Part shown: one piece after another, positions 1,781 through 41,202 of the stretch
Numbering within the stretch: position 1 is the first letter of the stretch
Layout of the letters: each line of letters opens with the position of its first letter
Virus record (IMG/VR): IMGVR_UViG_3300047157_000094
Coordinates: 1 to 60,742 of that record
Length of the DNA: 60,742 nt
Strand: one strand, 5' to 3'
Origin: a virus
Lineage: Duplodnaviria; Caudoviricetes
Notes under the pieces: generated by a model
Seen by the model: only the letters and a program-made list of their open reading frames with translations
The model's database searches: none
What the model was told of the DNA's origin: nothing
Translations under genes and position numbers: made by a program

Positions 1781-2899
1781 TTACGCCTCCGATGGTAATA
1801 CTAAATTAACGCTATATTTTTGGTTAAATAAATCTACATCTTGTTGTGATGAAATCATAGCAAAGTCTTCTAATGCCTCTGCACTGTTAGACATTAATTC
1901 TACAATGTCATCTGTAATCTCTGCTGGTAGTCTTGCTCTTAGTTGGTCATAACTTATAGGATTATCTGATTGAGCCATAGGTCCGGGAGCCATGGTCTCT
2001 GTAACTTGTTCTTTCATTACCATTTCACCGTTCGCGTATCCTGCTCTACCACCGCTAGCAAAAGATGCTGTTAGTTCTTGTATTTCTTTTTTAATAGCAT
2101 CCAAAGCATCTTTTTCAAGTTGTGGATCGCTTGAAGATTTGTACTTACGATTTTCATTTAATTTTAAATCTTCCCTATATAATTCTTCTATTTTATTAGG
2201 TAGGTATCTTTCACCTTTTCCTTTTACATAAATATCAACAAGCACTTCTTGACCTACATCTTTTTTACGATACAAATTAAACTCTTCTTGCAGCTGTAAT
2301 AATTCTACATCTTCACCTGGACCTAATGTTTCATTTTTTCTTTTATCTTTTAACTCTGTTAGTCTTGGAATAATTCTTCTTAATTCAATAGCTGCTGCCT
2401 CGTCTCTAAAACGACCTGATCCAGATTTTTCTGCTAGTATATCTGACTGACCTTCGATCAATGATTTAAACATACCAGCTCTTCTTTCATCTAAATTTTC
2501 TGCTTGTTGTTGCATTAGTAATTCTTCATTACCTCTTGATGCTTTAAATTTTTCAAACGGATCTTTAGCTGCTGCTAGTGCCGTGCTTATAGCTCCACCA
2601 ATACCACTGCCTATTGGTGTTTGTGATCCAATGTTTATTCCAAAGTCAATCATTAGATCACCTAATCTACGTTTACTATAATCAGTTCTAGGTTTTTGTG
2701 GATACAGTTGCTCAACTAATCTTTGTTGATCACCGATAGATGCGTTTTTTAAAAACTCTGCTATGTTTTGATTTGTGTCAAATTTTTGTACACTGTTCCC
2801 ATTGTCATAACCTTGTCTAGGTGCTTGTAATCCAGATGTAATTCCGCCTTCAGCAGACCCACCTTTTCTAAACATAGGTCTTTTGTATAAGTTATTCAT
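1781..2899 (-). CDS. Putative internal virion/ejection protein
   Basis: 372 aa, helical, with xxGG motifs (MFRKGG, FASGGRAGY); lies among post-tail genes. Confidence 0.6.
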   Translation of the reverse strand: MNNLYKRPMFRKGGSAEGGITSGLQAPRQGYDNGNSVQKFDTNQNIAEFLKNASIGDQQRLVEQLYPQKPRTDYSKRRLGDLMIDFGINIGSQTPIGSGIGGAISTALAAAKDPFEKFKASRGNEELLMQQQAENLDERRAGMFKSLIEGQSDILAEKSGSGRFRDEAAAIELRRIIPRLTELKDKRKNETLGPGEDVELLQLQEEFNLYRKKDVGQEVLVDIYVKGKGERYLPNKIEELYREDLKLNENRKYKSSSDPQLEKDALDAIKKEIQELTASFASGGRAGYANGEMVMKEQVTETMAPGPMAQSDNPISYDQLRARLPAEITDDIVELMSNSAEALEDFAMISSQQDVDLFNQKYSVNLVLPSEA

Positions 2900-3745
2900 T
2901 ATTGTTGACCGCTTCCTCTTAGATAGTCACCGTAACCAGTCATCAGTCCACCAGCAACTCCAGCTATTCCTAACGCATTCTGCAACGGCGTAGGGTTAGG
3001 TGTTACCATAGATTGATATTGTCCAGTGCATTCCAGATGCAATACTTGCTACACCTTGTTGTTGATAACCTAATCTTTCGTATGGTTCGAACGCTGCTAA
3101 TCTATTTTGCTCTCTTAAAGCATCTAGACCTGCTTGTGCTTGTGCTTGTTGATCTGCGCCCGCTGATCTTAAAGCACCTACGTCTGCTCCATATAATTGT
3201 GGAACTTGTTGAGCTAAAGCTTGTTGTTGACCAAAAGCTTGATTAGCTAATTGGTTAGCTTGAGTAAAACCTTGTTGTAATAATCCTGATTGTAATAATG
3301 CTCTGTTCATGTCAGATTTATTTTGATATTGTGATCTCATAACACCTTCACGTCCTCCACCTAAATTACCAGACATAGCTGCTTGTTGACCTATACCTGT
3401 CAAACCAGCTGCTGCTTGTTGATCGTATTCGGCTAGTGTTGCATCAATTACATCTTGTTGATATGGAGACATAAAAGGTTGATAACCAGTTGGTCCCGCT
3501 CCTGCTGCTGCAGCATCATATGCTCCTGCTTGTGTAATGTAAGGTTGGAATGCACCTATACCTTGGCCTTGAGTTGTAGCCATTGTGTATGCATCTTTTT
3601 GCGCTTGATCTTGTGCAGCAACTTGTGGTGCAAATTTTGATGTATCTAATGGTGCAGCAGTTAACGCCGTTAACTGTGTTCCTAAATCTTTTTGTAGATC
3701 TTCTACGTATTGTGGTGGGAGTGCTTGTGTTTGTTGTACAGCCAT
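2899..3745 (-). CDS. Gln/Ala-rich pilot/ejection protein (frameshift near the 3' end)
   Basis: ORF 2996..3745 is Q/A/G-rich; an alternative frame continues ...NPTPLQNALGIAGVAGGL... to a stop at 2899. Confidence 0.6.
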
Positions 3746-6770: not shown

Positions 6771-8989
6771 TATCTTCTTCCTCCAGTTTGTATATCTAAC
6801 CTAAAAGTCCCTAATTTCCAACTAGTATCTACTGCAGTATTGGATATTGTAAGAGCGATAGCTCTTGCTCTTGCACGTGTGTCTACTTTTTCAGTTCCAG
6901 ATGTTACAGTAAATGGACCTAATGATGAACTAGCTGCTGTATTATTAGGATAGTTTCTTAAATCTAATTGTATAATAGTGTTCCTTGCTTGAGATATAAA
7001 ATCAGGTATAATTCTACTTACTCTCATAATATTTTCACCATCACCTCTAAGTCTCCTAAATTAGTTGCAGCTCCTCTAATAACTTTTTGTGTAATATCAT
7101 AATCACCAGAAGTAATATTAGCTGGAATAGCTGTTGTTACTCCAAGTCTTACTTGATTAACTCCTGTTTCATGTTCATAGTAATATGAAATTCCTTCTGT
7201 GTTTCCTGTTACATCAAAAGATGTATCTGTTCCTGCATCGTATTGAGTTGCATGTGGTAATCCAAATACAGCAGAATCAATCCAAGTTGTTCTAATAAAT
7301 AAAGAACTTGCATTACAAACCATATAGGTCGTTTAGCAGTTGAGTCTAGATAACTATAAGTAACTGACTGTGTATTTACATTTGAGTTAGCTTCAGGATA
7401 AAACCATGTAACTTCTCCAAACAAGTTATTAATACCTGCATAAACCATTTGATTAGATGTTGTATTTAAATTATCATAAACATAGTCTTCAACTAAACAG
7501 TCCATAGATTCTAGTTTACCTGTGTATCTAAAGAAACCATTATCAGACATCCAGTACGCAGCACCATCAACTTCAACAGCTGCATTCTTACCTATTAATC
7601 CACAGTTAGTTCCGACTTGTTCAAAGGCAAAAGTAAAAGGAGTTCCAACAAAACGCATGGTAAATAAAGCTGTGTCTGTCCAAACATAAAGTGCATTTCT
7701 ACCAAGTTTAGCACCCATGATCCGTGATCCGGCGGCCAGTCTTTGTGTACCAGCACTATTAGTTCAGCTGTAGGTGTATAATCATTTATATTTTCTTGAG
7801 ATGAGAATCTTATAAACATATCATCTTGTGTTGTTTTATCACCAATAGTTGTTTCTGTTCCAAAAAATACTAAGTGACGATCAGGAGTAGATACTAACAT
7901 ATCTCTAGACGCTGTTGGTGCACCAGATATAATAGTTGCTCTTGTTGTTACAGCATTAGTTAAATCTGAATTCCATTCAAAACATTCACCATTAAATATT
8001 AAAGCAATGGCTGTGCTACCTAAATTATCTATAGACCACATACCGGGTTCTGCAACTTTATCCGTGGTCGATGCTGCTTGACCCCAGGCTGAGTAAGCAC
8101 TAAAGTTAGTAACTGTTGCACCATTACTGTGAGAAGCGTTTGTTGTGCCTCTAACATTTCTAGTAATTCCAGTAAAACTTGTAGCTGTAATTCCTGTGTA
8201 AGATATTTCTTCGTTATCTACTTGTATAAAATTTGTTCCTGAACTTGGAAAACCTGTGGTACTTGCTACATTAATCGTGGTCCCTGAACCACCAGTTCCA
8301 GCAGAGTCGGCATTTAATGCTCCATTCAATGTAGTAGTTTGTGGATTTGTAACAGTACCACCCCACTGAGATATACCATAACCAAAGACTCCAACCTGTT
8401 CAGCTGGTCCTACGTGATAATATTGAAAATAAGTTATGCCTCCAGAAGTAGTTGCTCCTGCTCCTCCTTCATTTCCAGGCATTGTAATAGTTAATGTAGT
8501 TCCTGTTGGTGTTGATGTTACCATAAATTTTTTATCACAAAAATCTGCAGCACCAAAATTTGAACCTGTAATAGCACTAAAAGTAGTTGTGTCACCAAAT
8601 AAAATTATATCACCTGGTTCAAAATTATGTGCTGATGGAAAAGTAAGAGTTACGGTAGGTGATCCATTACTTGTGCTAAAAGCATTTGTAAGAGCTGTGC
8701 CTGATGGATTAGTTAAAGGATGTATATCATAGTATACTCCTCCTGTGTAAACGTATAAAATTCTATTAGTTCCTATTAAAGAATATTTAATACCTGTTTT
8801 ATTAACCATGTGATGCAAACCTCTAGCCGCACCAGTTAATTTACTATCACCTAATTGAGACCAACCACCTATTTTTTCAGGTGTACCATATCTAAAACGT
8901 ACATTTTCACCTCCTGTCCATTGTGATTCAGCTCCGGTGGATGTAACTTGTTTATTAAATCCTGGTAAAAAACCTAGTTTTTGTAGCAT
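6770..8989 (-). CDS. Tail tubular protein B / stabilisation-like protein (multiple frameshifts)
   Basis: Fragments 7595..8989, 7209..7718, 7024..7323 and 6770..7027 join into about 740 aa. N-term W..GENVRFRYG.PEKIGGW and C-term WKLGTFRLDIQTGGRR are typical of podovirus tail nozzle proteins. Confidence 0.7.
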
Positions 8990-9049: not shown

Positions 9050-9595
9050 TTAAGAAATATACTCTAAATATTGGCCTGCAGCATAGTGTAAATTAAAGAC
9101 TATAGCATGTTTTGGTTTGTCTTCAAGATTAGGTTTAGATTCATGTCTTAATAAACTGTCCCAAAATAAAATTCTACCTGGTTCAGGTTTAACATGAAGT
9201 TTAAGTTCAGGAAAAAATAATTTTTGATTGCTACTAGTTAAATAAAGTATACCTGAAACATTAGCCTGTCCATGCCTGTGATTTGCAGTCCAATCTCCGC
9301 GATCAAGTCTAATGCCGTAAGCGTCTGATAACGTATACTCTGGATTTAATAAACCTGTAAATGCAGACAAATAATCTTTACTGGCTGTCATAATAGCTTT
9401 AAAACTAGGATTTTCTAAAAAAATATTTTCTGTTCTTTTTCCTTTAACATTGCTCTTGTAATTCCATTCATTATTATTCTTTAACACATCATCTATTATT
9501 TCTATAAAATCTGTTCCGTCAAAATTATCAAAGTCAAAACCATAGAGGCAGGTTGATCTCTTTATTTCTTTTTCAATTCTTAATGCAAATTTCAT
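9050..9595 (-). CDS. 2OG-Fe(II) oxygenase (TIGR02466-like, HxH type)
   Basis: HRH...VSGILYL...PGRILFWDSLLRH...IVFN. Confidence 0.8.
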   Translation of the reverse strand: MKFALRIEKEIKRSTCLYGFDFDNFDGTDFIEIIDDVLKNNNEWNYKSNVKGKRTENIFLENPSFKAIMTASKDYLSAFTGLLNPEYTLSDAYGIRLDRGDWTANHRHGQANVSGILYLTSSNQKLFFPELKLHVKPEPGRILFWDSLLRHESKPNLEDKPKHAIVFNLHYAAGQYLEYIS

Positions 9596-10143
9596 ACTTT
9601 ATAATCTTCCTCAAGTGTATCAAAATCTAGGTTAAATGATATAATAATTTTTTCTATATCTTCAGTTATTTTAGGTGATCTGTGCACCACAAAACTAGGA
9701 AAAATAATTATGTCCCCTTCTTTAGCATCTATCTCTAATATTTTTTGTTTGTTGACTAACTGTGTTTTCGTAGCACCTTTTGGAAATTGTAAATAATATA
9801 CTCCTGTATAATTGTTACTATGTATATGCCAGTTATGCACTCCGTTTTTTTTATATTTTTGAAACCATAGGTTTCTAATATGCACAGTGTTTAACTTTAA
9901 ATTTTTAATGCATTTTAAAAAATGTTTTTCTAGTAAAGGTTTTATAAACCTCACCCATTCTCTATCCATATCTGTGCTTTTTTGCCAATCTAAATAATCA
10001 ATTTTATCTTTAGGATGACAATCAAAATCATTTGCAGCTTTGTTTATAAAATTAATTAATTGATCTTGAATTAAATTATGGTGTTTAAACCTGTCTTGAA
10101 ATCCATAGGACTCTAATATTATTTTTTTCATTAATAACACCAA
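9592..10143 (-). CDS. 2OG-Fe(II) oxygenase (HxH type)
   Basis: WHIH..YTGVYYL...EGDIIIFPSFVVH...KIIISFN. Confidence 0.8.
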   Translation of the reverse strand: MVLLMKKIILESYGFQDRFKHHNLIQDQLINFINKAANDFDCHPKDKIDYLDWQKSTDMDREWVRFIKPLLEKHFLKCIKNLKLNTVHIRNLWFQKYKKNGVHNWHIHSNNYTGVYYLQFPKGATKTQLVNKQKILEIDAKEGDIIIFPSFVVHRSPKITEDIEKIIISFNLDFDTLEEDYKV

Positions 10144-10706
10144 GATACAAATGAGTATCTTGTTCCTTTTTTTATAGGTTTAATTAAATGCGGGTACATA
10201 AAAAGTGATGGAAATATAATTAAGTCCCCAGCTTTAAGTTTTATTTTATAGTCATTAAACATAATCAAATCTCCTCCTGTATAATCATCATTTAAAACTC
10301 CTATAATACTTAGTATGGGGATACCTCTAATTTCTCCTGTAAACAAACTATGTATATGGTCACAATGCTTAGACATTATTTGGTTTTTTTTATATCTATT
10401 AAATCTAATTTTACTAAAACCGTTCCAACCATTAAAAATTTCTCCCCCTATTTTATCAATAAGAATATATTTTTCTAAAGCTTTCCAAGTTAAATGATGT
10501 AAATCTTTAAGATGTGTTAAACTATTTCCATTACAAACATCTAATTCTTTATTACCATTTTTAGATTGTTTCTTAAATTCTTTTGAATAAGACCACTGAT
10601 GTTGTTCCCAATTTTTTTCTTTTGTTAACTCTTTAATAGTAACATTTAAAATATTTTTAGGAATCCATTTATTTAAATGAAGTATATAACTTTTTAAATT
10701 TTTCAT
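10131..10706 (-). CDS. 2OG-Fe(II) oxygenase, prolyl-4-hydroxylase-like
   Basis: HCD...LNDDYTGGDL...GDLIIFPS..MYPH...GTRYSFVSW. Confidence 0.85.
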   Translation of the reverse strand: MKNLKSYILHLNKWIPKNILNVTIKELTKEKNWEQHQWSYSKEFKKQSKNGNKELDVCNGNSLTHLKDLHHLTWKALEKYILIDKIGGEIFNGWNGFSKIRFNRYKKNQIMSKHCDHIHSLFTGEIRGIPILSIIGVLNDDYTGGDLIMFNDYKIKLKAGDLIIFPSLFMYPHLIKPIKKGTRYSFVSWCY

Positions 10707-11278
10707 ATTATTTTAAAATTAGCTGACACAGATATTCTTTCTCCGTTACTTGTAAAAGGACATACGTAATGTTTTAAGTTATAAGGAAATATAAAAAAAT
10801 CTCCTTTGTTAGGTAAAAATTTTTGTTGATCAATGTTGTAGTCTCTATATTCTCCATACGAAAAAATTATAGATCCAGGACCTGAAGATTTTCCTATGTA
10901 CTTTTTGTTTTCTTTTTTTAATGCAGAAGGTATTTGTAAATATAGAACACTAGATAGATCACAGTTTATATGATGGTGTGGAGGATTAGATTCATTTTTT
11001 TTCATATAATTTACCCATGCTGAATTACATTGTAATTTTAATAATTGCCTGTTGTACCAGAAATGAAACCTTTTTTGAAAAGGTTGGAAATAAGGTTCAA
11101 CAATTTTTGCATATTTTTTTTCATCAATAACGTGTTCACTTTTAATAACTCCAGCTAAAATATCTCTAGCGTCTTTATTTTTTTTACTACAAAGTTTTTC
11201 TACTTTAGATAAGTCTTGTGTGTTTAGTTGTGTCTTATACAACAAAGGACCAAACATGTGTTGTTCATAAGTTATCAT
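10703..11278 (-). CDS. 2OG-Fe(II) oxygenase (HxH type)
   Basis: NPPHHH..DLSSVLYL...GDFFIFPYNLKHYV...ERISVSAN. Confidence 0.8.
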   Translation of the reverse strand: MITYEQHMFGPLLYKTQLNTQDLSKVEKLCSKKNKDARDILAGVIKSEHVIDEKKYAKIVEPYFQPFQKRFHFWYNRQLLKLQCNSAWVNYMKKNESNPPHHHINCDLSSVLYLQIPSALKKENKKYIGKSSGPGSIIFSYGEYRDYNIDQQKFLPNKGDFFIFPYNLKHYVCPFTSNGERISVSANFKII

Positions 11279-11764
11279 AAATAGTTAAAGTTTATTACAA
11301 TCCTTCTGTCTGTATCTGTTGCAGTTACTGCAGCATGGTATGTTTTTGTATCTATAATTAATAGTTTATTTTCTTCTACCGCAATTTTAGTTTTATCTTT
11401 TAATAAAGTATAGCCGTTATTTTTATTTATGTAAAATATAGCTGTATTGCAAAAAAAACTCTTTGTCGACATGAAACTCTGATTGTGTATGTTTTTTAGT
11501 TTTAAATAATAAATTAGCTCTTATTTCATTTATCATATTAACTTTAAGTTTTTTAATTATAGGTGTTATGATTGTGTCGTAATAAATAGAATTTTTTTGA
11601 TGGTCATGATAAAAGTTATGTCCCATAAAAAAACTATCATTTTTACCTGAAGTTTGAGACTCATTAAAAAACCAAGGAAAAGTATTAGATAATATTATTT
11701 CTTTAATTTTGTTAAAGGTGTCTTGATCAAGAAAATTTTTTATTTGTTTATATTTATATTCCAT
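11275..11764 (-). CDS. 2OG-Fe(II) oxygenase (one frameshift in a poly-A run near 11451-11458)
   Basis: The joined fragments give FHVD...TAIFYIN.NNGYT...NKLLI....YH...RRIVINFNY. Confidence 0.75.
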
Positions 11765-12078
11765 TCTAACGCATCAATAATTTCATCTAGATTAATTTCT
11801 TTTAACCTGTGTGTGATAATAAAACTATGCAACTCTGCTGCTTCAACAATAACCCATTTATCTTTTTGTTCGAAAACAATTTTATCTGCTTTAGATTTAT
11901 TGGTTAGTGGTTTTACATCTCGACCTTCGTCATCCATCTGATACGGCCTAAGATCGTATTTTAATTTTTCATTTAATCTGTTTTTTAATATACCAACTAC
12001 ATCCCAAAGTTCTTTTTCTTTTTGTTTTTTAGTAGCCTGTTTAACGTTAGTTAAATGTTTTTTTATAAAATCTTTCAT
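11740..12078 (-). CDS. Hypothetical protein within the oxygenase island
   Basis: 112 aa ORF overlapping both neighbours; no oxygenase motif. Confidence 0.6.
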   Translation of the reverse strand: MKDFIKKHLTNVKQATKKQKEKELWDVVGILKNRLNEKLKYDLRPYQMDDEGRDVKPLTNKSKADKIVFEQKDKWVIVEAAELHSFIITHRLKEINLDEIIDALEWNININK

Positions 12079-12662
12079 ACTGTAAAGTCAAAATTTATAA
12101 CAGTTCTTTTACTAAAATCAATAGGGCAATTTCCTGAGTGATATATACCGCCATCAAAATATATAGCTCTTCCTTGTTTAGGAGATATTCTTTTATTTAC
12201 CACAGCATCAGCATCTAATAATATTTCATCAGATATTTTATTTTTAAAAAAAACACTGTCGCCATCAGAATCATCTACATAGTATAACAAAGTTTTGTAA
12301 GGCAAATGATCTTTAACATCTATGTGAGGTACGTTGTATTTTTCTTTAGAATGATTTTTAATTCTAAACGTTCTTCTTATTCTAACTCTTATCATGTCTT
12401 TTATTTTTACTTTTTCTTTAATAACAAAAAAATTCAATATGGTTGAAAACAAATTATAGTAATCAGAGTTTATTCCTTTTTCATTATATAGGGTATGAAT
12501 ATGTGCAAATGTTTTAGTTATGTTTGGATTAATAAATTTTCTATTTTCTTTCTGATGAATAATATTATCTGTATAAAACCATGCAATTTCTTCACTGTCT
12601 AATAATTCAATATATTTATTTTGTATATTTAAAGGTACAAAATTATCTAAAATTTTTATCAT
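12075..12662 (-). CDS. 2OG-Fe(II) oxygenase
   Basis: PHID...LLYYVDDSDGDSVFF...PKQGRAIYFDG..YH...RTVINF. Confidence 0.8.
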   Translation of the reverse strand: MIKILDNFVPLNIQNKYIELLDSEEIAWFYTDNIIHQKENRKFINPNITKTFAHIHTLYNEKGINSDYYNLFSTILNFFVIKEKVKIKDMIRVRIRRTFRIKNHSKEKYNVPHIDVKDHLPYKTLLYYVDDSDGDSVFFKNKISDEILLDADAVVNKRISPKQGRAIYFDGGIYHSGNCPIDFSKRTVINFDFTV

Positions 12663-13258
12663 GTTGTTTCTCTTTTAAATGGATATCCCAAATGAGGTCT
12701 ATCGTCATAAAGATTTTTATCCCAACCTTTTGTTGCTTTATTGTTGTAGTGTAAAAATACTTGACCACACATATAACCTTCAAAAGGTTTTCTCCAATGA
12801 GGTAGAATAGTTCCAGAATATAATAATGCATCTCCTGCATTTAATTCAACTTTAATTTCTTTTCCTTTAGTATTTTCTAGATATATGGGCCACATGTCAC
12901 CACCTAAATTTAAAGTGCCGGAGATTTCACAACTAAATCTATCTTTGTGTTTTTTTAAAATGTCTCCATTTTTATATAACCTAGTGTATGTGTAGGTAGG
13001 AGATAACTTAAGCTTTGTTTTTTTTTCTAGCGTTTCATTAGTAGCTGCTAATAATGTTTCCATAGCAATATCTGAATAACAAGAATAGCTTCCAGGTGCT
13101 TGCTCGTCACCATCAAAACCCAACAGTTTATTATTTATGTTTAATCTTTTTAAAGAATAAAAAGTTTGTTTTTTCATTCTTAAATAATTAAATAAAAAAT
13201 TAGCTAGTTCTTTACTAATTATATTTCTACATATTTGATATTTATTTTTATTAAACAT
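12659..13258 (-). CDS. 2OG-Fe(II) oxygenase
   Basis: LKKHKDR.SCEIS.TL...WPIY...GDALLY.G...PHWR...QVFLHY. Confidence 0.8.
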   Translation of the reverse strand: MFNKNKYQICRNIISKELANFLFNYLRMKKQTFYSLKRLNINNKLLGFDGDEQAPGSYSCYSDIAMETLLAATNETLEKKTKLKLSPTYTYTRLYKNGDILKKHKDRFSCEISGTLNLGGDMWPIYLENTKGKEIKVELNAGDALLYSGTILPHWRKPFEGYMCGQVFLHYNNKATKGWDKNLYDDRPHLGYPFKRETT

Positions 13259-13871
13259 AAGGTTTTCCTACTGTCCACATTACTAAACTATACCTTGTTC
13301 CTTTTGTTATAGGTGTAACACGATGCCATACAAATCCAGGAAAAAAAATAATAGAACCTTGTCCTAAATTACATTGATTCATATTTGATTTATTTTTTTC
13401 CAAAGGTGTTTCAACGTTGTTATTGTAACCTATTTCTAAATCACCCCCACTATATTCTTTAGGGTCATTTAATAAAACACTACAAGATATTTTTCTTATT
13501 TTTCCTTCATATTGTGAAAATTTATGATTTTTAAAAGGTTGATAAAACGAATCCATATGCCAATTATAATATTGTCCTTTTTCATATTTAGTAAATTGAA
13601 TGTCTTCATTCCAGCTAACTTCAAAATTCCAACCCGCATTTTTATTTGCCATATGAAGATAGGGATTTAATTTTTTATAAACTTCTTTATCAAACACCCA
13701 TTCTATAGAAGAATTTCTACGTTTTTTATTTGCAATAGCTTTTTGTTTTACGCCATCCCCACCAATTTTACCTTTTTTAGTAGCCCTAGGTTTGTATGTT
13801 TTTATTATATTATCACACCATGTTTTATCTAAAACATTTTTAAAAAACCATACGTTATGTTTTAAATGCAT
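13251..13871 (-). CDS. 2OG-Fe(II) oxygenase, PKHD/P4H-type hydroxylase
   Basis: YNWHMD...RKISCSVLLNDP.EYSGGDL...FPGFVWHRVTPITKGTRYSLVMW. Confidence 0.88.
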   Translation of the reverse strand: MHLKHNVWFFKNVLDKTWCDNIIKTYKPRATKKGKIGGDGVKQKAIANKKRRNSSIEWVFDKEVYKKLNPYLHMANKNAGWNFEVSWNEDIQFTKYEKGQYYNWHMDSFYQPFKNHKFSQYEGKIRKISCSVLLNDPKEYSGGDLEIGYNNNVETPLEKNKSNMNQCNLGQGSIIFFPGFVWHRVTPITKGTRYSLVMWTVGKPYV

Positions 13872-15532
13872 TATTGATAAATCCTTTCTATGTCTGCAAA
13901 ATATATATAATCTATATCTGATTCATTAAAAGTTTCTATGGCATCTTTAGGAGATTCTACTAATGGTTCCCCTGCTAAATTAAAAGAAGTGTTCATTAAT
14001 ATAGGCATCCCTGTTTTTTTATTAAATAATTTTAATAATTTATATAATACCGGGTTTTGTTTTTCATTAACTGTTTGTATTCTACACGTGTTATCCACAT
14101 GTATCACTGCAGGGATTTTATCTTTAACACCTTCTTTAGCTTCAACAGCATATAACATATACGGAGATTCTTTTAATCCGGCCATGTCAAACCATTTATG
14201 TGCTTCCTCTTCTAAAATAGATGCACCAAAGGGTCTAAACCATTCTCTATTTTTAACTTTGTTCATTATGTCTTTACCATTTTTAATCCTAGGATCTAGT
14301 AACAAAGATCTATTTCCTAAAGCCCTAGGTCCTGCTTCGGCTTTACCTTGATATAAACCAACAATTTTTTGATTAATTAAATGTTCAACTACAGTCTCTA
14401 TTTTATCATTACCTTTTTCTATATCGTAAACAGGTTCAGGTCCTAAATAAATATTATCAAAATTATTTCGTGTTCCACAATATTTACCAAAAGTTATTGC
14501 AGCTCCAATACTATTGCCTTCATCACCACATAAAGGATCAATATAAAGATTAATGTCTTTAGGCAAAAATTTTTTTAACCTATAGTTAAAAACAACATTT
14601 AATGCACAACCACCGGTTATAATAATATTTTTTGCGTTGTTAGCATATCTATTTAAAACTTTAATCATTTGATACTCAAATTGTTTTTGACTTTCATAAG
14701 CTATGTCATAATGAATTTGTTTATATCCTAATTTTTTGTGATAATAAAGTTCTGGGTATTTTTCAACATTAACATTAAAGTTAATATCTTTGTTATATTT
14801 ATCTTTATAGACAAATAAATCATCTTTCAATAAAATCTCTTTTATCTTTTTATTAGGTTTTCCATAAGCTTGTAAACCCATAAGTTTTCCTTCATCGTTT
14901 GTTTTAAAACCCAAATGATTTGTCATTCTACTATAAAAAGCTCCGGAAACAGGTCTATGATCTACATCAAAATTTTCAAATCCTTTTAATGTAATTGCAT
15001 CCATAACAAAGTCAAAACCGTAAATTTCATTAGCTCTTACTTTTGCTTTATGTCCTTCCCTAGTAGTTTGTAATCTTTTATATAAACAATCGAACCCGTG
15101 TTCGATACTTGCAAAGTACACAGAAAAAACTTCATGTCCTTGTTTACCATTATCCAATATATAATTAGAACCTCGACCATCAGCTACTAATATTACTGCT
15201 TCATCCATATCAGTAGAATACATGGCTTTTACTGCATGATTTAGATGATGTGATTTATAATAATGAACTGCATTTTCATAAGGAGAATCAATTAAACCCA
15301 TCTTGTACATATAACCATAAACAAGATGAGCATCGTGAGTGTTATATCCTGTAACAACTACTTTATCTATTTTAATATTTAATTTTTTAATTTCATTTAA
15401 AGTGTGTATGGGAAAAAAACTATCGTTTTTAATTTTAGATAGTCTTTCTTCTTGATTATAATAAACTAATTTAAAGTCACAAAATAAAGCAACTGATGAG
15501 TTATGATTTTTTTGTAATCCTAATATGTTCAT
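13871..15532 (-). CDS. O-carbamoyltransferase (NodU/CmcH/TobZ family)
   Basis: EERLSKIK, HHLNHA, DGRG, EGKLMGL.AYG, GGCALN, GPRALGNRS, KNREWFRPF, HVDNTCRIQTV and NTSFN are all present in 553 aa. Confidence 0.92.
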   Translation of the reverse strand: MNILGLQKNHNSSVALFCDFKLVYYNQEERLSKIKNDSFFPIHTLNEIKKLNIKIDKVVVTGYNTHDAHLVYGYMYKMGLIDSPYENAVHYYKSHHLNHAVKAMYSTDMDEAVILVADGRGSNYILDNGKQGHEVFSVYFASIEHGFDCLYKRLQTTREGHKAKVRANEIYGFDFVMDAITLKGFENFDVDHRPVSGAFYSRMTNHLGFKTNDEGKLMGLQAYGKPNKKIKEILLKDDLFVYKDKYNKDINFNVNVEKYPELYYHKKLGYKQIHYDIAYESQKQFEYQMIKVLNRYANNAKNIIITGGCALNVVFNYRLKKFLPKDINLYIDPLCGDEGNSIGAAITFGKYCGTRNNFDNIYLGPEPVYDIEKGNDKIETVVEHLINQKIVGLYQGKAEAGPRALGNRSLLLDPRIKNGKDIMNKVKNREWFRPFGASILEEEAHKWFDMAGLKESPYMLYAVEAKEGVKDKIPAVIHVDNTCRIQTVNEKQNPVLYKLLKLFNKKTGMPILMNTSFNLAGEPLVESPKDAIETFNESDIDYIYFADIERIYQ

Positions 15533-16134
15533 AGTTTTAATTCTGTTAATGTTTGTCTTGAACCAAAGTCTCCTTTTGCAAAAACGTTAAAAGCTAGACT
15601 TATTCTTTTACCATAAGTTTCTTCAACATTACCAACTTCATGCATTAAACAAGAAGGAAACAAAATAATTTTATTTGTAGCTGCAGGTATCCACCAAGTA
15701 TCTGAATTATATTTATTAAATTGTTTAGGGTATACTTTAATTTGATCGTAAACATTTTTTTTAAATCTAATATAATCAAACTTTGGATTTGCATTTATAT
15801 AATAAACGCCAGATATAATAGAGTTAGGATGAGAGTGTGGATAGTGTACTTGTTTTTCATTCGTGTAGTTTAACCAAGATTGTGTAATATAAAATTTTAA
15901 ATTACTTGAAGGTTTTAATATTTGATCAACGTATTCTTGAATAAAAGAATTAATTTGTTTTTTTAAATTTTTAAAAGGTTTTTCGTCAAGAATGTAAGTA
16001 TTTTTACTTTGTAAAACTTTAAACTCCCAATCTGGTTTTGTTTCATATTTAAAAAAATTTTGTAAAGTAGTTTTAGATAAAGGCTCTAAATATTTTTCGC
16101 ATATGGGGGTCGGAAATAGATCTATTATATTCAT
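15529..16134 (-). CDS. 2OG-Fe(II) oxygenase (TIGR02466-like)
   Basis: HYPHSHPNSIISGVYY...IILFPSCLMHEV...RISLAFN. Confidence 0.85.
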   Translation of the reverse strand: MNIIDLFPTPICEKYLEPLSKTTLQNFFKYETKPDWEFKVLQSKNTYILDEKPFKNLKKQINSFIQEYVDQILKPSSNLKFYITQSWLNYTNEKQVHYPHSHPNSIISGVYYINANPKFDYIRFKKNVYDQIKVYPKQFNKYNSDTWWIPAATNKIILFPSCLMHEVGNVEETYGKRISLAFNVFAKGDFGSRQTLTELKL

Positions 16135-16184
16135 AATCTTTCTTATGAATATATATTTAACTGATAATAACTAAAAAGTAAAGA

Positions 16185-16646
16185 CTAACTAATTTCCCAA
16201 GTATTGGTGTTTGTGTCCCAGTGATAAGAAGTCATTGGGTCTTCTAAAACATTCTCGCTTTGCCATCTGTAATTTTCTTCACTCCAATAGCACCATCTTA
16301 ATATTACAGTATCACTTACCACTAGACTTTCATCTGTTGGTTTTGTTACTGGAGCTTGCCAATCATCATTAGAATCTAGTATCCATGAAGCATATGGTTG
16401 TGGTCTTATAAATTTATCTTTAACAGCATCATAAGTATCTCCTATTCCTGCATTTTGTTTTCTAAATGCATTTGTAGAAGAACATTGTTTCCAAACTCCA
16501 CCTTTAAAAAGATTTGTGCAATAAGTTTCTCCATCAACATGCATGTCATTTTCACCTAAAGGACCATCCGATGTTGGTACGTCATTACCAATTTTAACAG
16601 TTTGAGTAACTACGTTGTTTTCGTCTAATTTTGCAAATGATGCCAT
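16185..16646 (-). CDS. Tail-fibre-associated protein (assembly chaperone-like)
   Basis: WKQCS...FRKQNAGIG.TYD...FIRPQPYASW...WQAPV; directly follows the Gly-rich fibre gene. Confidence 0.6.
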   Translation of the reverse strand: MASFAKLDENNVVTQTVKIGNDVPTSDGPLGENDMHVDGETYCTNLFKGGVWKQCSSTNAFRKQNAGIGDTYDAVKDKFIRPQPYASWILDSNDDWQAPVTKPTDESLVVSDTVILRWCYWSEENYRWQSENVLEDPMTSYHWDTNTNTWEIS

Positions 16647-17458
16647 TACTCTACTGTAAGTGTCCCCGACACTGTAAAGGTAGCTACTTTTTGTCCTCCT
16701 GGAGCAGTTGCTACAGTATTTGTTCCTGGTGCAACAGTTAAAGTTGCGGCCGCTGGAGCGCTAACAATTACAACACCTGAACCGCCAGTACCATTTGGAG
16801 GAGAGCTATCAAAACCCATTCCGCCGCCTCCGCCGCCTTTTCCGTTGGTTCCATTAGATCCTGAAGCTGTTCTACTACCTCCGCTTCCACCGCCGTCTTG
16901 TGCTGGTCCTGGTCCTGGACTTGGAATGTAACCTCCGCCACCTCCACCGCCAGCGTATTCTACTGAAGATCCTGATACAGAGCTATCTCTTCCAACTCCA
17001 CCGGCTCCTCCGGCTGGAGTAGATGTTCCTCCACTGCCGCCAGCTCCTCCGCCGCCAGAATTAATTTGTGTTCCAGCAGGGTTTCCTTGTGGTGGACTAA
17101 CTGGGGGATTGTTACCTGTTTTAGAAGGATATTGAACTGAACCACTTCCACCATTAGCTTCGGGGTTACCATAACCGCCTCCACCGCCACCGGTTGAAGT
17201 AATTGTACTAAAAACTGAATTTCCTCCTCTTGGACAAGAGTCATTTCCTGGAACAGGTCCTGAACCTGTACCGACTGTAATTGTGTGATCTCCTCCCTCT
17301 AATTCTATAACAGCAGAATCTTCAGAAGTTCTAAAACCTCCGGCTCCGCCGCCACCTCCGGCTCCGCCACCTCCGCCTCCGGCAACGACTAAATAATTAA
17401 CTTCGTAGACAACTGAACCGCCGCCTGATCCAAATCCTAAAACTTGATATCCAAACAT
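16646..17458 (-). CDS. Glycine/proline-rich tail fibre tip protein
   Basis: YLVVAGGGGGG...GGGGAGG...GGSGVVIV Gly-rich domain with Pro-rich loops (NNPPVSPPQG, PSPGPGP). Confidence 0.75.
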   Translation of the reverse strand: MFGYQVLGFGSGGGSVVYEVNYLVVAGGGGGGAGGGGGAGGFRTSEDSAVIELEGGDHTITVGTGSGPVPGNDSCPRGGNSVFSTITSTGGGGGGYGNPEANGGSGSVQYPSKTGNNPPVSPPQGNPAGTQINSGGGGAGGSGGTSTPAGGAGGVGRDSSVSGSSVEYAGGGGGGGYIPSPGPGPAQDGGGSGGSRTASGSNGTNGKGGGGGGMGFDSSPPNGTGGSGVVIVSAPAAATLTVAPGTNTVATAPGGQKVATFTVSGTLTVE

Positions 17459-17470: not shown

Positions 17471-18696
17471 TTATGCGTCGTTAGCCGCGTCAGTAGTAAA
17501 GAATAATTTGATACCTAGAACTCTACATTCTCCGGTAAAAGTATCACTACCGTCTGCTGCTTCTCTAAATAATTGAAAGTAAGTTTGCTCACCTGCTGCA
17601 GGAGAACCCGCAACTGTCATTGCACTACTTTCAGCTGTAATTTGTTGATCTTCAACTGTTCCTATACCAGCATCTGTAACTTCTATTGCTGTTCCATATG
17701 CAACATCAATAGTATCATTATCTGCACATGCAACACCTTGTAAACCAAAAATAGCATCACCTGTATTAGTAGTAGAAGGAGACCAATAAACTTGATAAGT
17801 TAAAGTTCCTTCATTCCATGATTTAGGCATAGCTATTGTAAATTGTGTGTATTGTTGTGTACTAGCATCAAAATCAAATACTTTTAAATCTGGTCTTGTA
17901 GCTGTTGTTTCTACTTGAGCTGCGTCTGCAGGGTTAGTAGTTGGTCCATACATAGCTGCAGCTGGAACCCATATAGTTTCTTTACCAGCAATTTTAACTG
18001 CAGCTGTTCCTGATTTAAGAACACCTGTTCCTTTAGGATTTAAATTTATATCAACATTAGTTTCACCTGTTGCTGATAAAATTGGACCATTACCTGAAGC
18101 AGCATTAGCTAAAGTAAATTCATTAACTGCTGAACCTGTTGCAGTAAGATTAATTAATTCATTTCCATTAGTATCTAAAATTGAAGTTCCAATTTTAGGT
18201 GCTAGTTAAAGTTTTGTTTGTTAAAGTTTGTGTTCCAGTAAGAGTTACATCACCATCACCAAAACCTAAAGTATATATGTCTGGGTTAGTTCCATCATTT
18301 GCTGTAGCAAATACTACTTGATCACCTTTATCTGTTGCAGAAAAAGTAAATGTATCTCCTGAACCAGAAGCATATTTAAATTGTACTGTGTAAGCACCTG
18401 ATGTTGAATTTCTTAAAAAATAAAATGTTTGTGCATCTAAAGGAATTGTTACAATTTGGTTTCCAGTAATAGAACCTGTAAACTCAATCATTCTGTGAGA
18501 CATAACTGCTCCAGTTGATCCATCAGAAACTGAAAGAGCTGTAGTTTGTGCTCCACCTGCTATTGATTGTGCAGAAAAATCCACCTGAAATTTGTTCGAT
18601 TATATTTAAGTTAGTGTTAGTTTTTGTTCCCCATGTACCGGCGTTTTCACCAGTTGCCATTAGTTCTACACCGAGAGCCGTATAAGTTGATGCCAT
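17471..18696 (-). CDS. Tail fibre protein (frameshifted)
   Basis: Start MASTYTALGVELMATGENAGTWG at 18696, TQTLTNKTLT fibre motif, fragments 18195..18584 and 17471..17953. Confidence 0.7.
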
Positions 18697-18773: not shown

Positions 18774-19943
18774 TCATGTAACAGCAGTATAATTAGCTGT
18801 TTGTGTAGCAGTTATTCGTTCGTATCCTAGTGGTGCTATAGTACCTACACTAGCAGTTGCTGAAACTCCTGTCAATCCCATAACTTGATTAACTATAAAG
18901 AACCCGTTGCAGAAGTTGTTGAAACTCCTGTTAATCCCATAACATCTGCAGGTGTTAAAGCACCTGTAGAAGAAGTCATAGAAAGCCCTGTTACAGATAT
19001 ACAATAGGGTTTGAAGAATTGCTATTGAACCAACAGCTGACGTTAAACCTAATCCAGTTAATCCCATTACATCTGCTGGAGCTAAAGCACCTGGAGACGA
19101 TGTTGTAGATAAACCTGTTAAAGCTACATTTATACTAAAATCTATATTTACTGACCCAACTGTTGAAGTTGCACTTTGACCTGTTGGAGTTAATACAACA
19201 TCTGATATTGCGGTTGGTGTTCCAACTGTTGATGTTGCACTTAATCCAGTTAAACCCAATACGCTTGCAACATTTAAATAATATTCACCACCCCAACCAG
19301 TTGTTGCAGATCCCCAAGTTTGTTTACCCCAACTAACATCTTCTCCAATACCTGTAGTTGCTTCAACACCAGTTAATGCAACTGTTATTCCAGAAGATCC
19401 CCAGTTTTCAACACCCCAACCATCAGATCCCCAACCTGTATTTATTTCTGTTAAGATATTAGGCGAACCTGTTGATGAAGTAGAAGAAACTCCAGTAAGT
19501 GTAAAAATTACATCGTTAAGTTCTCCCCACTCACCATCATTCCAAGCTTGAGCTCCCCAACCTAATACAAAGTCATCGGTGGTTCCCCAACGATTAACAT
19601 TCCAACCTAAAGCACCATAAGAAGCTGGAGCAATAGTGTTGGCTTGACCACCCATACCAGAGTGAATTGAACAATAATAATAAAGTTGTGGTGCACTATC
19701 TGCTACAACTATTGTAACTTGTGTTGAACTATTTACAGTTACGCCGGTTGTATATTCACTTCCAGAATTGTGTGTACCATCTGATGTTGTAGAAAATCTA
19801 AATGGGTGAGCTGAAGGATAATTAAATACGTAAGTTCCACTTTCAGCTAAATTTATTGTGTCTTGTTGTACACCATCAATAAAATATTTATTACCAGATC
19901 CAGGATCGCTAACTGTTACTGTAAATGTTCGGGTTACCGACAT
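18774..19943 (-). CDS. Virion structural protein with cupredoxin-like N-domain and WG repeats
   Basis: HPFRFS...LYYYCSIHSGMG; WGxxxW repeats; LTGxSAT repeats; likely frameshift near the C-terminus. Confidence 0.65.
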   Translation of the reverse strand: MSVTRTFTVTVSDPGSGNKYFIDGVQQDTINLAESGTYVFNYPSAHPFRFSTTSDGTHNSGSEYTTGVTVNSSTQVTIVVADSAPQLYYYCSIHSGMGGQANTIAPASYGALGWNVNRWGTTDDFVLGWGAQAWNDGEWGELNDVIFTLTGVSSTSSTGSPNILTEINTGWGSDGWGVENWGSSGITVALTGVEATTGIGEDVSWGKQTWGSATTGWGGEYYLNVASVLGLTGLSATSTVGTPTAISDVVLTPTGQSATSTVGSVNIDFSINVALTGLSTTSSPGALAPADVMGLTGLGLTSAVGSIAILQTLLYICNRAFYDFFYRCFNTCRCYGINRSFNNFCNGFFIVNQVMGLTGVSATASVGTIAPLGYERITATQTANYTAVT

Positions 19944-19956: not shown

Positions 19957-20395
19957 TTATGCTATACGAAGTATTGCGTTAGATGCGTCTGCTGTTGGAA
20001 ATTGAATTGTAAAAGTTCCACTTGTTACAGTTTTGTCTGAACCAAATGCGATTGCACAAACTGCTCTATCAGCGTTTGTATCATTATAAATTAAACAACC
20101 ATTAGCTGTAAATGAAGCAGAAGTAAAACTAAGGTCTGCAAAATCACAACACTGCAGTATCCGTAGATAAAGCAGGAGTTACACTTGTAAGTGCTTTTCC
20201 ACCAGCTGAGTAAGCTGAACCTGATGTGTTAGAAATTTCGTTTGATGAACTGTAAGCTGTTGTTGATTTATTTAAAGTAGCACTACTTGTGTATAAAGCT
20301 AATTTAAAAGTGTTTCCAGACGATGCTGTAAAATTATGTAAAGCTTGTAAAACTTCTGCTTTAAAACTGTTACATACTGCCGATGTTATTGCCAT
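19957..20395 (-). CDS. Virion structural (tail) protein (frameshifted)
   Basis: MAITSAVCNSFKAEVL...FKLALYT; a second frame ends GTFTIQFPTADASNAILRIA*. Confidence 0.65.
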
Positions 20396-20411
20396 AATAT
20401 TTTTCTCCTAA

Positions 20412-21142
20412 TTACTGAGGCGGTGACTCGATTGGTATTCTTATTGTTCCATCCGTGTAATCGTCTCGTCTTCTTCTTCCAATTTGCATCGCTGCAAACT
20501 TTTGTAGTTCAGTTTTATACTTTTTTCGTATAATGTCAACATATCTGTTGGACCTTTTAAAAATCCATATGCTTCTACTAAACATGCATATAAGCAGACC
20601 TTGGGGAAAATACAAACTAATATAATTAGTTTGATTACCGGATTCTAATGTAGCAGGCATTTTATTATAATATATTCTAAATATATAATTAGCGTCTGGT
20701 GTAGGAGCTAAATAGATAGCTCCTGAAGTAGTATCAGATAATCCTGTTGCTCCACCAAACATAGCGTAATATTTAGGTTTTCCAGTAACATCTGCTCCTG
20801 ATGTAGTTGATCCTTCTGGACCTGTTAATCTTCCTACATATTCACTTAAAAAGTTTGATCACGTCTTTCTAACCATGTACCTTTTCAGTAGAATTTGTAG
20901 CATTAAATACTTCTACACCTCTTACAAATAAAGTTCCCTGCTGGAACTCTAATATTATTTACATCAGTTGCCATTGTACCTTGATCCACGAATCTGTCTG
21001 AATCCATAGGTAAATCCATCATAATTCTTTGTTGAGCATTTAAAATAAAACTTTCTAAAACATCAGTTGTAAAAACGTTAGAATCTACTTCTGTGTAGTT
21101 TCTAATTTGTGTAACTAATGTATTATAACTAATTCCTGACAT
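20412..21142 (-). CDS. Head-tail adaptor/tail tube-like protein (frameshifted)
   Basis: Fragments 20903..21142 and 20412..20762; G.PKYYA...IYLAPTPD..Y motif. Confidence 0.65.
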
Positions 21143-38993: not shown

Positions 38994-39211
38994 GGATTTA
39001 AGATTTAACTAATCTTACCTACGCCCTTTTGCTAGTTTACGGCGTTATAAACTCAAACTAGCGGGACAACCTCGGGTTGCATCACACCGCCACTAGTTGG
39101 CCGTCTTTGTAATCCAGAGGACTGATCCCTGGTCCTAGTGATTCGTTTTGCTAGCGTTGAGCGTATTTTGTGTAATGCATTTCACATAGACGCTAGGACC
39201 TGGGATCAGTC
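38993..39211 (+). ncRNA. Candidate structured RNA / long leader
   Basis: ORF-free region downstream of a promoter, with a possible pseudoknot (ACGCC/GGCGT; GCTAGTTT/AAACTAGC), small hairpins and a 21-bp inverted repeat (39120-39140 / 39191-39211). Confidence 0.4.
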
Positions 39212-39273
39212 TATTAGTGCGGGGAAGACTCGAGAAGCCCTCGTGTGAAGAGACTGGTCCTAAGAAAGAAATT

Positions 39274-39486
39274 ATGACTAGAAAAATTTATGAGACAAAC
39301 GCCAACCATGGTCCGGAGTACAACAAAATTTTAATTAACCACTGGCGCTGGCTGGAGGATCAGGGCCCAAGCTACAAGCACCAGGCCGCAAGCTGCAAGC
39401 TTCAAGCAGCAAGCTTGACAAGACGTCTTTATGGTGTTATAGGAGAATCAAGGAGAAAGAAATTATGCAAACAAAAGACGCTTTAA
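39274..39486 (+). CDS. Small hypothetical protein overlapping heptamer array 1
   Basis: MTRKIYETNANHG..LINHWRWLE; AGAAAGAAATT leader, as in the next gene. Confidence 0.45.
   Translation: MTRKIYETNANHGPEYNKILINHWRWLEDQGPSYKHQAASCKLQAASLTRRLYGVIGESRRKKLCKQKTL
39361..39416 (+). repeat. Tandem heptamer array (CAAGCNN) 1
   Basis: cagggcc caagcta caagcac caggccg caagctg caagctt caagcag caagctt. Confidence 0.9.
39415..39443 (+). promoter_or_regulatory. sigma70-like promoter
   Basis: TTGACA-17-TATAGG, then an AGGAG RBS and ATG at 39465. Confidence 0.65.
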
Positions 39487-40067: not shown

Positions 40068-40150
40068 AACAGAATTCCCGCGTGGAATAAATTCGGATCA
40101 GGTCATTAGCAAAGAACCGGCGACGGCTGGGAATCAGCGTGCACCTGGTC

Positions 40151-40270
40151 CGGGCCTCAAGCTTCAAGCACCAAGCGTCAAGCTTTCGAACCAACCTGGT
40201 CAAGCATCAAGCAACAAGCGGTAAAGCCACAAGCACAGGGGTCAAGCGTCAAGCCACAAGCAGCAAGCTC
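40151..40270 (+). repeat. Tandem heptamer array (CAAGCNN) 2
   Basis: About 14 units in two blocks: caagctt caagcac caagcgt caagctt ... caagcat caagcaa caagcgg ... caagcgt caagcca caagcag caagctc. Confidence 0.9.
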
Positions 40271-40567: not shown

Positions 40568-40595
40568 GTCATTATCGAGGTAATTACCCCGCGCA

Positions 40596-41164: not shown

Positions 41165-41167
41165 ACC

Positions 41168-41201: not shown

Positions 41202-41202
41202 C

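Follow-up and report, generated by a model that had tools for sequence, protein, structure and literature searches.

Nine 2-oxoglutarate oxygenase-like genes and an O-carbamoyltransferase gene beside a Gly-rich tail gene in an HTVC023P-type pelagiphage: a candidate tail-tailoring cassette

We analysed the viral record IMGVR_UViG_3300047157_000094 over its whole length of 60,742 nucleotides (the window; estimated completeness about 96%), focusing on an island of 2-oxoglutarate/Fe(II)-dependent (2OG) oxygenase-like genes and one carbamoyltransferase gene in the tail module. The portal protein shares 71% identity with that of HTVC027P and 61% with that of HTVC023P, and the terminase, family-A DNA polymerase, helicase, primase and exonuclease genes match the HTVC023P group; judged by these genes, the window is the near-complete genome of an HTVC023P-type pelagiphage. 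Phages of this group are Podoviridae and are described as highly abundant in the ocean (PMC9599517, PMC12753301, both as far as their accessible text goes). Nearly all genes of the window lie on the minus strand, including the eleven genes of the island (9050-16134), which comprise nine oxygenase-like genes, the carbamoyltransferase gene and a gene for a 112-residue protein. Eight of the oxygenase genes are intact and the ninth is split by a one-base homopolymer indel. On one side the island is bordered by a Gly_rich_2 gene and its small partner gene (16185-16646), on the other by a virion structural gene. Listed from the Gly-rich side, the features are:

16646..17458, minus strand: Gly_rich_2 protein, 270 residues, 32% Gly and 7.4% Pro (PF21722, E 1.3e-15; phrog_2295)
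16185..16646, minus strand: small conserved partner, 153 residues (phrog_7759)
15529..16134, minus strand: oxygenase 1, PF13759/TIGR02466-like, H100-x-H102...H165 (PF13759, E 3e-18; phrog_81)
13871..15532, minus strand: O-carbamoyltransferase of the TobZ/NodU/CmcH family, 553 residues, intact (PF02543 and PF16861)
13251..13871, minus strand: oxygenase 2, P4H/PiuC-like (P4H, prolyl 4-hydroxylase), H105-x-D107...H183, R193 (PF13640)
12659..13258, minus strand: oxygenase 3, labelled 'ferrochelatase', H104-x-D106...H154, R156 (phrog_2954; fold model resembling PHD, prolyl hydroxylase domain, and P4H enzymes)
12075..12662, minus strand: oxygenase 4, labelled 'DNA endonuclease V', H113-x-D115...H175 (phrog_274)
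11740..12078, minus strand: conserved Lys-rich protein of 112 residues with no assigned function (no Pfam or PHROG family)
11275..11764, minus strand: oxygenase 5, split into open reading frames (ORFs) 11423-11764 and 11275-11472; intact form H98-x-D100...H143 (phrog_274)
10703..11278, minus strand: oxygenase 6, H101-H-H103...H170 (PF13759)
10131..10706, minus strand: oxygenase 7, H114-x-D116...H173 (PF13640)
9592..10143, minus strand: oxygenase 8, H106-x-H108...H154 (PF13759); its true start is likely the ATG at 10131, which overlaps the upstream stop
9050..9595, minus strand: oxygenase 9, H106-x-H108...H151 (PF13759)
7209..8989, minus strand: virion structural protein forming the downstream boundary of the island, frameshifted into ORFs 7595-8989 and 7209-7718 (phrog_3287; about 739 residues in relatives)

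The island has a GC content of 0.268 compared with 0.354 in the remaining window, and all ten of its gene junctions overlap by 1-25 nt, six of them in the ATGA arrangement, so that the AT-rich, coupled run described in the initial annotation was recovered. Promoter-like sites showed no excess over shuffled sequences (60 found, 65.5 +/- 8.4 expected) and terminator-like sites a slight excess without clear enrichment (8 versus 4.7 +/- 2.1); no transcription unit could be drawn from these scans. Megablast of the island against phage records gave no match. Four oligo-dT RNA-seq runs, all from one study, contain short contigs that match parts of the island and the Gly-rich gene exactly; such contigs prove neither transcription of the island nor its strand or level.

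The nine oxygenases of HxD and HxH subtypes announced by the initial annotation were all confirmed as oxygenase-like by Pfam, PHROG or fold matches and by their predicted metal triads, with the qualification that one of them is split. Six genes reach the gathering score of a Pfam family, four that of PF13759 (9050, 9592, 10703 and 15529) and two that of PF13640 (10131 and 13251); the gene at 12075 (E 0.0096) and the split gene 11275-11764 match weakly below that score, and the gene at 12659 has no match. The genes at 12075 and 11275-11764 belong to phrog_274, to which the PF13759-type genes cross-match, and iterated profile searches merge phrog_274 with other oxygenase families. Read from the sequences, the four PF13759-type genes have the triad HxH...H and the remaining five have HxD...H. 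The HxH...H variant agrees with the family of these genes and with the solved structure 3bvc, which together with 2rg4 is closest to oxygenase 1; both structures are of uncharacterised proteins. In the two oxygenase families that we aligned (12659 and 13251 types) the catalytic residues including the HxD...H triad are invariant (H104, D106, H154 and R156 in the 12659 family), and by this measure the enzymes look active. The split oxygenase is whole (162 residues) in the 99%-identical contig L005, relative to which the window carries an extra T in a T-run at 11451, either an assembly error or the mark of a true pseudogene. A literature search on the function of PiuC found no paper.

The product of 12659-13258 was modelled with AlphaFold2 as a double-stranded beta-helix (predicted local distance difference test, pLDDT, 90.2), and Foldseek returned more than 500 matches at E<=0.001 with P4H and PHD enzymes on top. 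The best matches were to the Pseudomonas putida P4H solved with EF-Tu (4iw3/4j25; E 1e-9, template-modelling (TM) score 0.63-0.72), followed by PHD2 and then by PiuC and the PBCV-1 collagen P4H. When the profiles of the 12659 and 13251 families were compared, their HxD motifs fell in register, but at a probability of only 4%. None of the 12 members of the 12659 family matched the ferrochelatase Pfam models. The label 'ferrochelatase' was therefore rejected for this gene, whose model is a double-stranded beta-helix oxygenase; the invariant HxD...H and R156 and the P4H/PHD fold match identify its product, on the strength of the model, as a PHD/P4H-like oxygenase. The same mislabelling is seen more widely: small proteins with an HxD...H motif and an oxygenase fold are called 'ferrochelatase' in phrog_2954/3531 and 'DNA endonuclease V' or 'DNA endonuclease' in phrog_274/2297, and these families recur in S-CAM8, S-SSM5, S-MS29, HTVC008M, HTVC023P and P-SSM2. 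The name 'ferrochelatase' also stands in GenBank records and in two papers. For the members of the array, 'ferrochelatase' and 'DNA endonuclease V' appear to be wrong.

The carbamoyltransferase, called intact in the initial annotation, indeed has both domains of the NodU/CmcH type (PF02543, E 1.9e-24; PF16861, E 3.1e-62) and no internal stops. It has the two-domain build of its relatives, Kae1-like at the N-terminus and YrdC-like at the C-terminus, shares their length of 553 residues, and aligns end to end with the solved 7xb6, NovN, GdmN and TobZ; no paper on PDB 7XB6 was found in a literature search. Residues H95, H96, H99, D118 and D337, which we take to be the equivalents of the TobZ metal ligands, are invariant across 12 aligned carbamoyltransferases. 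The closest relatives beyond its own clade are metagenomic proteins of 42-49% identity, some on contigs of up to 336 kb, and the cyanomyovirus enzymes share 35-37% identity with it. In a quick maximum-likelihood tree (Shimodaira-Hasegawa-like approximate likelihood-ratio (SH-aLRT) support, midpoint root, some long branches) the carbamoyltransferases of oxygenase islands fall on three or more branches that lie well apart (the window clade; L063/L065; L122), and the S-CAM8 group forms a further branch. Because of this separation, the quick tree fits repeated recruitment of the carbamoyltransferase to the oxygenase cassette. Among species-representative genomes (best 80 loci), oxygenase-like ORFs stand beside the carbamoyltransferase in 5 of 80, among them the locus L147 described below.

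The product of the Gly-rich gene (16646-17458) contains GGGGGG runs and the loops PPVSPPQG and PSPGPGP. Its AlphaFold2 model (pLDDT 87.7) is mostly without regular secondary structure, and its top Foldseek matches, all weak and none at E<=0.001, were the Bxb1 tail tip, the Pam3 fibre and the glycine-rich domains of ALK and LTK (best scores: 9d93, E 4.5e-3, TM 0.33; 7ypx, E 0.06, TM 0.29). Given the Gly_rich_2 match, the confident model and the weak matches to tip folds, the protein is plausibly a receptor-binding tail tip. A tblastn search with it gave no match, probably owing to the low-complexity filter. The start of the partner gene overlaps the stop of the Gly-rich gene (TAATG). The partner has no Pfam family and yields viral hypothetical clusters only in the ESM Atlas; its homologues adjoin Gly-rich genes and oxygenases in HTVC023P, DSL-LC04, S-CAM8, S-SSM5, S-MS29, HTVC008M and Bellamy. 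The 112-residue protein (11740-12078) likewise matches no Pfam or PHROG family and viral hypothetical clusters only in the ESM Atlas; it is found in most expanded islands and also in L097 and L109, both of which are without a carbamoyltransferase.

The neighbourhoods of related genes were compared in two sets of loci: 70 viral loci picked by their carbamoyltransferase and a further 58 picked only by a relative of Gly_rich_2. In the second set, 53 of the 58 contigs carry an oxygenase ORF, and where at least 700 bp were left on the contig, a co-directional oxygenase lies directly after the last Gly-rich or partner gene in 46 of 49. The 23 islands in this set that end at the phrog_3287 gene (bounded islands) all have at least three oxygenases: three in 16 islands, four in five, five in one and seven in one. 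Every one of the 23 has the 12659 type, 22 have the 13251 type and 20 the 15529 type. Oxygenase-like ORFs were found in 38 of the 70 carbamoyltransferase-picked loci, about 30 of the 38 being HTVC023P-type contigs in the gene order of the window; complete islands of this set hold 6-10 oxygenases, and close relatives gain and lose individual ones. Nearly all related islands (L004-L029, L046-L049 and others) are 8-15 points lower in GC than their flanks, and the drop is smaller in S-CAM8 (0.351 compared with 0.408), which suggests either that the islands are subject to mutation or selection of their own or that they share a low-GC origin.

Named phages show the same association. In HTVC023P five Gly_rich_2 genes (gp59-62 and gp70) surround the partner gp63 and the oxygenases gp65-67 and gp71, and in its freshwater relative DSL-LC04 a Gly-rich gene, a 2OG oxygenase and the partner gene are consecutive. 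In the cyanomyoviruses S-CAM8, S-SSM5 and S-MS29 the carbamoyltransferase gene abuts a Gly-rich gene and is followed by a 13251-type oxygenase, a 12659-type oxygenase, the partner and more oxygenases, with annotated tail-fibre genes adjoining. In the SAR11 myovirus HTVC008M the baseplate genes are followed by a Gly-rich gene (gp065), the partner (gp066) and six oxygenase-like genes. The cassette thus recurs, with or without the carbamoyltransferase, in myoviruses of two different hosts.

These arrangements may be read as follows. The island would be an expanded copy of a cassette that forms part of the distal-tail, receptor-binding module in HTVC023P-type pelagiphages as well as in several T4-like marine myoviruses. 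In its basic form the cassette would consist of one or two Gly_rich_2 tip proteins, the small partner and three oxygenases (P4H/PiuC-like, PHD-like and TIGR02466-like), to which the window lineage would have added six oxygenase paralogues, the 112-residue protein and the TobZ/NodU-type carbamoyltransferase. Since the genes overlap and have the same orientation as the tail genes, their products are probably made together with the tail proteins. The oxygenases would then hydroxylate side chains of the Gly-rich tip, the partner or both; the carbamoyltransferase, with carbamoyl phosphate and ATP, would O-carbamoylate a hydroxyl on the same target, either one made by these enzymes or one of a sugar; and the shifting set of paralogues might tune the stability of the tip or its receptor specificity. 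That the oxygenases tailor distal tail proteins (the Gly-rich tip and/or the partner) is the reading we tentatively favour as a serious possibility, somewhat short of probable, because the three-oxygenase core is a fixed neighbour of the Gly-rich and partner genes and recurs in T4-like myoviruses, and because the 12659 model best matches protein prolyl hydroxylases. The full scheme, in which the cassette is a dedicated maturation system for receptor-binding proteins that hydroxylates the tip and, in this lineage, O-carbamoylates one such hydroxyl, is a good deal more doubtful and in our view improbable, and carbamoylation of a protein hydroxyl is its speculative step.

A number of observations weigh against tailoring of the tail tip. 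Hypervariable accessory islands often adjoin tail-fibre genes for reasons unrelated to function, and most of the synteny counts come from one broad viral lineage and thus represent conservation rather than independent events. HTVC027P has three oxygenases at the corresponding site on the opposite strand and without Gly_rich_2, partner or carbamoyltransferase, and in P-SSM2 the carbamoyltransferase adjoins purM and a DNA polymerase gene. Only 2 of the 23 bounded islands of Gly-picked contigs contain a carbamoyltransferase, and 32 of the 70 carbamoyltransferase-picked loci showed no oxygenase in the available flanks even with iterated profiles; these 32 are mostly large contigs with carbamoyltransferases 33-36% identical to that of the window. 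The idea that carbamoyltransferase and oxygenases always travel together was therefore rejected. The small-molecule oxygenases SnoN, EctD and HygX match the 12659 model almost equally well as the protein hydroxylases, every solved relative of the carbamoyltransferase acts on small molecules, and we know of no member of its family that acts on a protein side chain.

Proline content did not provide a link between enzymes and tip. The initial annotation had suggested testing whether the number of oxygenases tracks the Pro content of the fibre, but across 17 bounded loci, which are not phylogenetically independent, that number did not rise with the Pro content of the Gly-rich proteins (rho -0.31 for total Pro, +0.21 for the Pro fraction). 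At the same loci, and uncorrected for relatedness, oxygenase number fell with the total length of the Gly-rich proteins (rho -0.67). A single short Gly-rich gene (about 270-300 residues) tends to go with many oxygenases and two long Gly-rich genes with the minimal three. Co-occurrence of the island with the Pro-rich motif fared no better. GNNPPVSPPQG or GNTPPVSPPQG is nearly invariant in HTVC023P-type Gly-rich proteins, but PPxSPPQG is absent from the Gly-rich proteins of cyanomyoviruses, HTVC008M and DSL-LC04, all of which have oxygenase neighbours, and is present in L142, where the 13.6 kb examined show no oxygenase. Judged from these sequences, the motif does not in general mark the linkage between Gly-rich genes and oxygenases.

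Three other explanations were weighed against tailoring of the tail tip. The carbamoyltransferase and some of the oxygenases could modify sugar hydroxyls on host surface polysaccharide or lipopolysaccharide, or on a virion glycan; envelope remodelling of this kind would mask receptors, block superinfection or keep progeny from adsorbing to debris, and adjacency to tail genes would reflect a shared role in adsorption. The solved relatives of the carbamoyltransferase are all small-molecule O-carbamoyltransferases, and several of them, such as TobZ and NovN, use sugar hydroxyls. Sugar chemistry is also indicated by L147 (4463-12899), a contig of a GTDB metagenome-assembled genome in which two carbamoyltransferases alternate with two oxygenases beside GT9-like, PfkB-like and NAD-epimerase genes. 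This contig was binned as a marine archaeon and its locus does not look like phage; a glycan-modification cluster or a viral fragment are both possible. Glycosyltransferase genes lie a few kb downstream in HTVC023P and HTVC027P, a Pelagibacteraceae genome has its own carbamoyltransferase homologue (L216), and carbamoyltransferases flanked by GT1 genes are described on contigs with unmodified DNA in the accessible part of Yang 2021 (PMC8670742). In the record itself, six-frame searches gave no match to GT1 or GT2, the two glycosyltransferase families covered; moreover, it is the three oxygenases and not the carbamoyltransferase that make up the conserved part of the cassette, and the best matches of the 12659 model are protein prolyl hydroxylases. 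We consider glycan modification unlikely. The oxygenases could instead be host-directed auxiliary enzymes that hydroxylate host proteins (for instance translation factors or ribosomal proteins) or metabolites, or convert 2OG to succinate, and so reprogramme the SAR11 cell, their position by the tail genes being an accessory-gene hot spot. This is the published view of cyanomyovirus oxygenases (Sullivan 2010, PMC3037559) and of pelagiphage 'AMGs' (auxiliary metabolic genes; Wittmers 2022, PMC9599517), at least in the accessible text of both papers, and several of our results agree with it: an EF-Tu prolyl hydroxylase is the best structural match of 12659, gene content differs among near-identical phages, the island GC of 8-15 points under the flanks suggests a separate evolutionary regime, and the HTVC027P oxygenases lie on the strand opposite to the tail genes. 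It leaves unexplained, however, that the same three types of oxygenase come after Gly-rich genes in 46 of 49 contigs and that, in myoviruses infecting two hosts, they accompany both the Gly-rich gene and the partner, and nine distinct paralogues would be superfluous for mere consumption of 2OG; we hold a host-directed role to be no likelier than glycan modification.

The remaining alternative is hypermodification of nucleic acid, in which an oxygenase would hydroxylate thymine or 5-methylcytosine in phage DNA or RNA and the carbamoyltransferase would cap the hydroxymethyl group, as in 5-carbamoyloxymethylcytosine (5cmdC). An enzyme of the same family from an uncultured phage converts 5-hydroxymethylcytosine (5hmC) into that base (Yang 2021, eLife, PMC8670742), some HTVC023P-type clades have thymidine hypermodification genes (Wittmers 2022, PMC9599517), each according to the accessible text, and small AlkB-like oxygenases act on nucleic acids, with weak PF13532 matches in 2 of 12 members of the 12659 family (E 0.033). 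As far as the accessible part of Yang 2021 (PMC8670742) goes, the carbamoyltransferase of the 5hmC type is found only together with thymidylate-synthase homologues, a co-occurrence that marks the DNA-modifying enzymes. Six-frame searches of the record, about 96% complete, gave no match to PF00303 (Thymidylat_synt), PF02511 (Thy1) or C5 DNA methylase and none at E<=0.1 to Tet_JBP (PF12851), which argues against the known DNA route, and the island is located in the tail module and not by the polymerase; modification of nucleic acid is thus the least likely of these readings, and very much so. The initial annotation had likewise recognised no cytosine methylase, dCMP hydroxymethylase or glycosyltransferase, and for the families searched we agree. 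Its choice of the fibre rather than DNA as the target is favoured by the recurrent linkage to tip genes in two phage families and by the missing DNA route, with HTVC027P as an exception. Of its proposal that the fibre is hydroxylated and then carbamoylated, the linkage of oxygenases and tip is supported, whereas the carbamoylation step is speculative and is weakened by the count of 2 in 23, the small-molecule relatives and the sugar-linked L147.

Multi-copy 2OG oxygenases are among the commonest unexplained accessory genes of marine cyanophages and pelagiphages and since 2010 have been discussed only as metabolic or repair genes. Their fixed linkage to Gly-rich tip genes makes tailoring testable on the cultured phages HTVC023P, HTVC008M and S-CAM8. 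If the full scheme holds, it would be the first O-carbamoylation of a protein side chain by the TobZ/NodU-type family, and the fast-changing paralogues would act as a dial of host range or stability in some of the ocean's most abundant phages. Whatever the substrate, the widely copied labels 'ferrochelatase' and 'DNA endonuclease V' distort AMG surveys and have entered published interpretations.

The island lies beside the Pro-loop Gly_rich_2 gene among tail genes, as the initial annotation had stated, with the correction that this is the tail module of a podovirus and that several of the flanking structural genes are frameshifted. Upstream of the Gly-rich gene lie:

17471..18584, minus strand: tail protein gene, broken into ORFs 17471-17953 and 18195-18584 (phrog_31104; homologue of HTVC027P gp69, which is annotated 'putative tail protein')
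18774..19943, minus strand: tail-module gene, weakly baseplate-wedge-like, 389 residues (about 468 in relatives; phrog_708, E 1.9e-8)

The first of these is a single ORF of about 407 residues in near-identical contigs (intact in L028 at 2410-3633), compared with which the window has gained one base at each of 18580 and 18201. The second has homologues in related contigs, there too upstream of the Gly-rich genes, and in HTVC027P (gp68). Single-base indels are numerous in the window compared with the 98-99% identical contigs L004, L005 and L028, in which the genes broken here (17471-18584, 7209-8989, around 20150-20939 and 18778-19016) are intact; just one indel falls within the oxygenase island, against many in the flanking structural genes. 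Assembly of a mixed population may have introduced these indels as errors, or the genome may be defective. Elsewhere in the window, the replication module contains homing-endonuclease-like ORFs of the LAGLIDADG and HNH types (43776-44213 and 52134-52679), the HNH-type gene being located between the helicase and primase genes. A short plus-strand block at 39001-41800, with GC raised to 0.48, runs against the direction of almost all other genes and contains a GP88-family ORF (39465-40067) and a terminase-small-subunit-like ORF (41203-41727).

The sequence of hydroxylation and carbamoylation has a precedent in the cephamycin pathway, in which a 2OG hydroxylase makes the hydroxyl that CmcH, an enzyme of the NodU/CmcH type, then carbamoylates. 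Antibiotic carbamoylation pathways also encode the enzymes that build the scaffold; the phage, in contrast, encodes no scaffold builders, so that the substrate must be a molecule of the phage or of the host. As small stand-alone protein hydroxylases of the P4H/PHD fold, the PBCV-1 collagen P4H (5c5t) and the bacterial P4H that acts on EF-Tu (4iw3) are the nearest enzymatic parallels; both are among the structural or sequence matches of the HxD oxygenases of the island, at only 13-18% identity, and collagen-like G-X-Y repeats are absent here. For the presumed target, Pam3 offers a comparison. Its glycine-rich lattice, which is related to S16 gp38 and to ALK, is described as forming the receptor-binding tip of its fibre (Viruses 2022, PMC9608196, accessible text), and the Pam3 fibre (7ypx) is the third-best fold match of the 16646-17458 model. 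Pam3 gp24 with its chaperone gp25, and S16 gp38, have GGGGxGG-type motifs at the distal tip and a small gene directly downstream, as in the window, the likeness of the partner to gp25 being one of gene position alone. No oxygenases are described with these tips in the accessible part of PMC9608196, and a literature search on hydroxylated phage tail fibres found nothing on point. The enzyme of Yang 2021 (PMC8670742) shares with that of the window the Carbam_trans_N and C family and the logic of placing a carbamoyl group on an installed hydroxyl; in the part of the paper at hand its partner is a dCMP hydroxymethylase resembling thymidylate synthase, whereas the neighbours in the window are oxygenases and tail genes.

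Further close systems are those of marine phages, in which oxygenase arrays were already known, as the initial annotation had acknowledged. The accessible text of Sullivan 2010 (PMC3037559) lists 2OG oxygenases, a 'hypothetical with ferrochelatase domain' and carbamoyltransferases among the sporadic genes of cyanomyoviruses and proposes sensing of 2OG or nitrogen status, or DNA repair, as roles. The islands of S-CAM8, S-SSM5 and S-MS29 have the same gene families and neighbourhood as that of the window but belong to the T4-like myovirus family, with carbamoyltransferases on another branch of the quick tree. For HTVC023P-type phages, eight non-orthologous 2OG-Fe(II) oxygenase 'AMGs' co-located with 'ferrochelatases' were reported (Wittmers 2022, mSystems, PMC9599517), that is, the same phage group and the same co-located oxygenase families, including the one labelled 'ferrochelatase', as in the window. 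The main text of that paper takes the ferrochelatase label as real, whereas the protein is modelled here as a PHD-like oxygenase, and it does not use the terms 'carbamoyltransferase', 'tail fiber' or 'glycine-rich'; the main text of PMC12753301 gives no expression timing for the HTVC027P oxygenases. Compared with the system as presented in PMC9599517, the array in the window is larger, with nine oxygenases, and fixed behind Gly_rich_2 tail genes. The gene content itself is largely known, and three results go beyond the published text: the oxygenases are linked to Gly-rich genes, the identity of the 'ferrochelatase' is corrected, and pelagiphage islands can contain a carbamoyltransferase.

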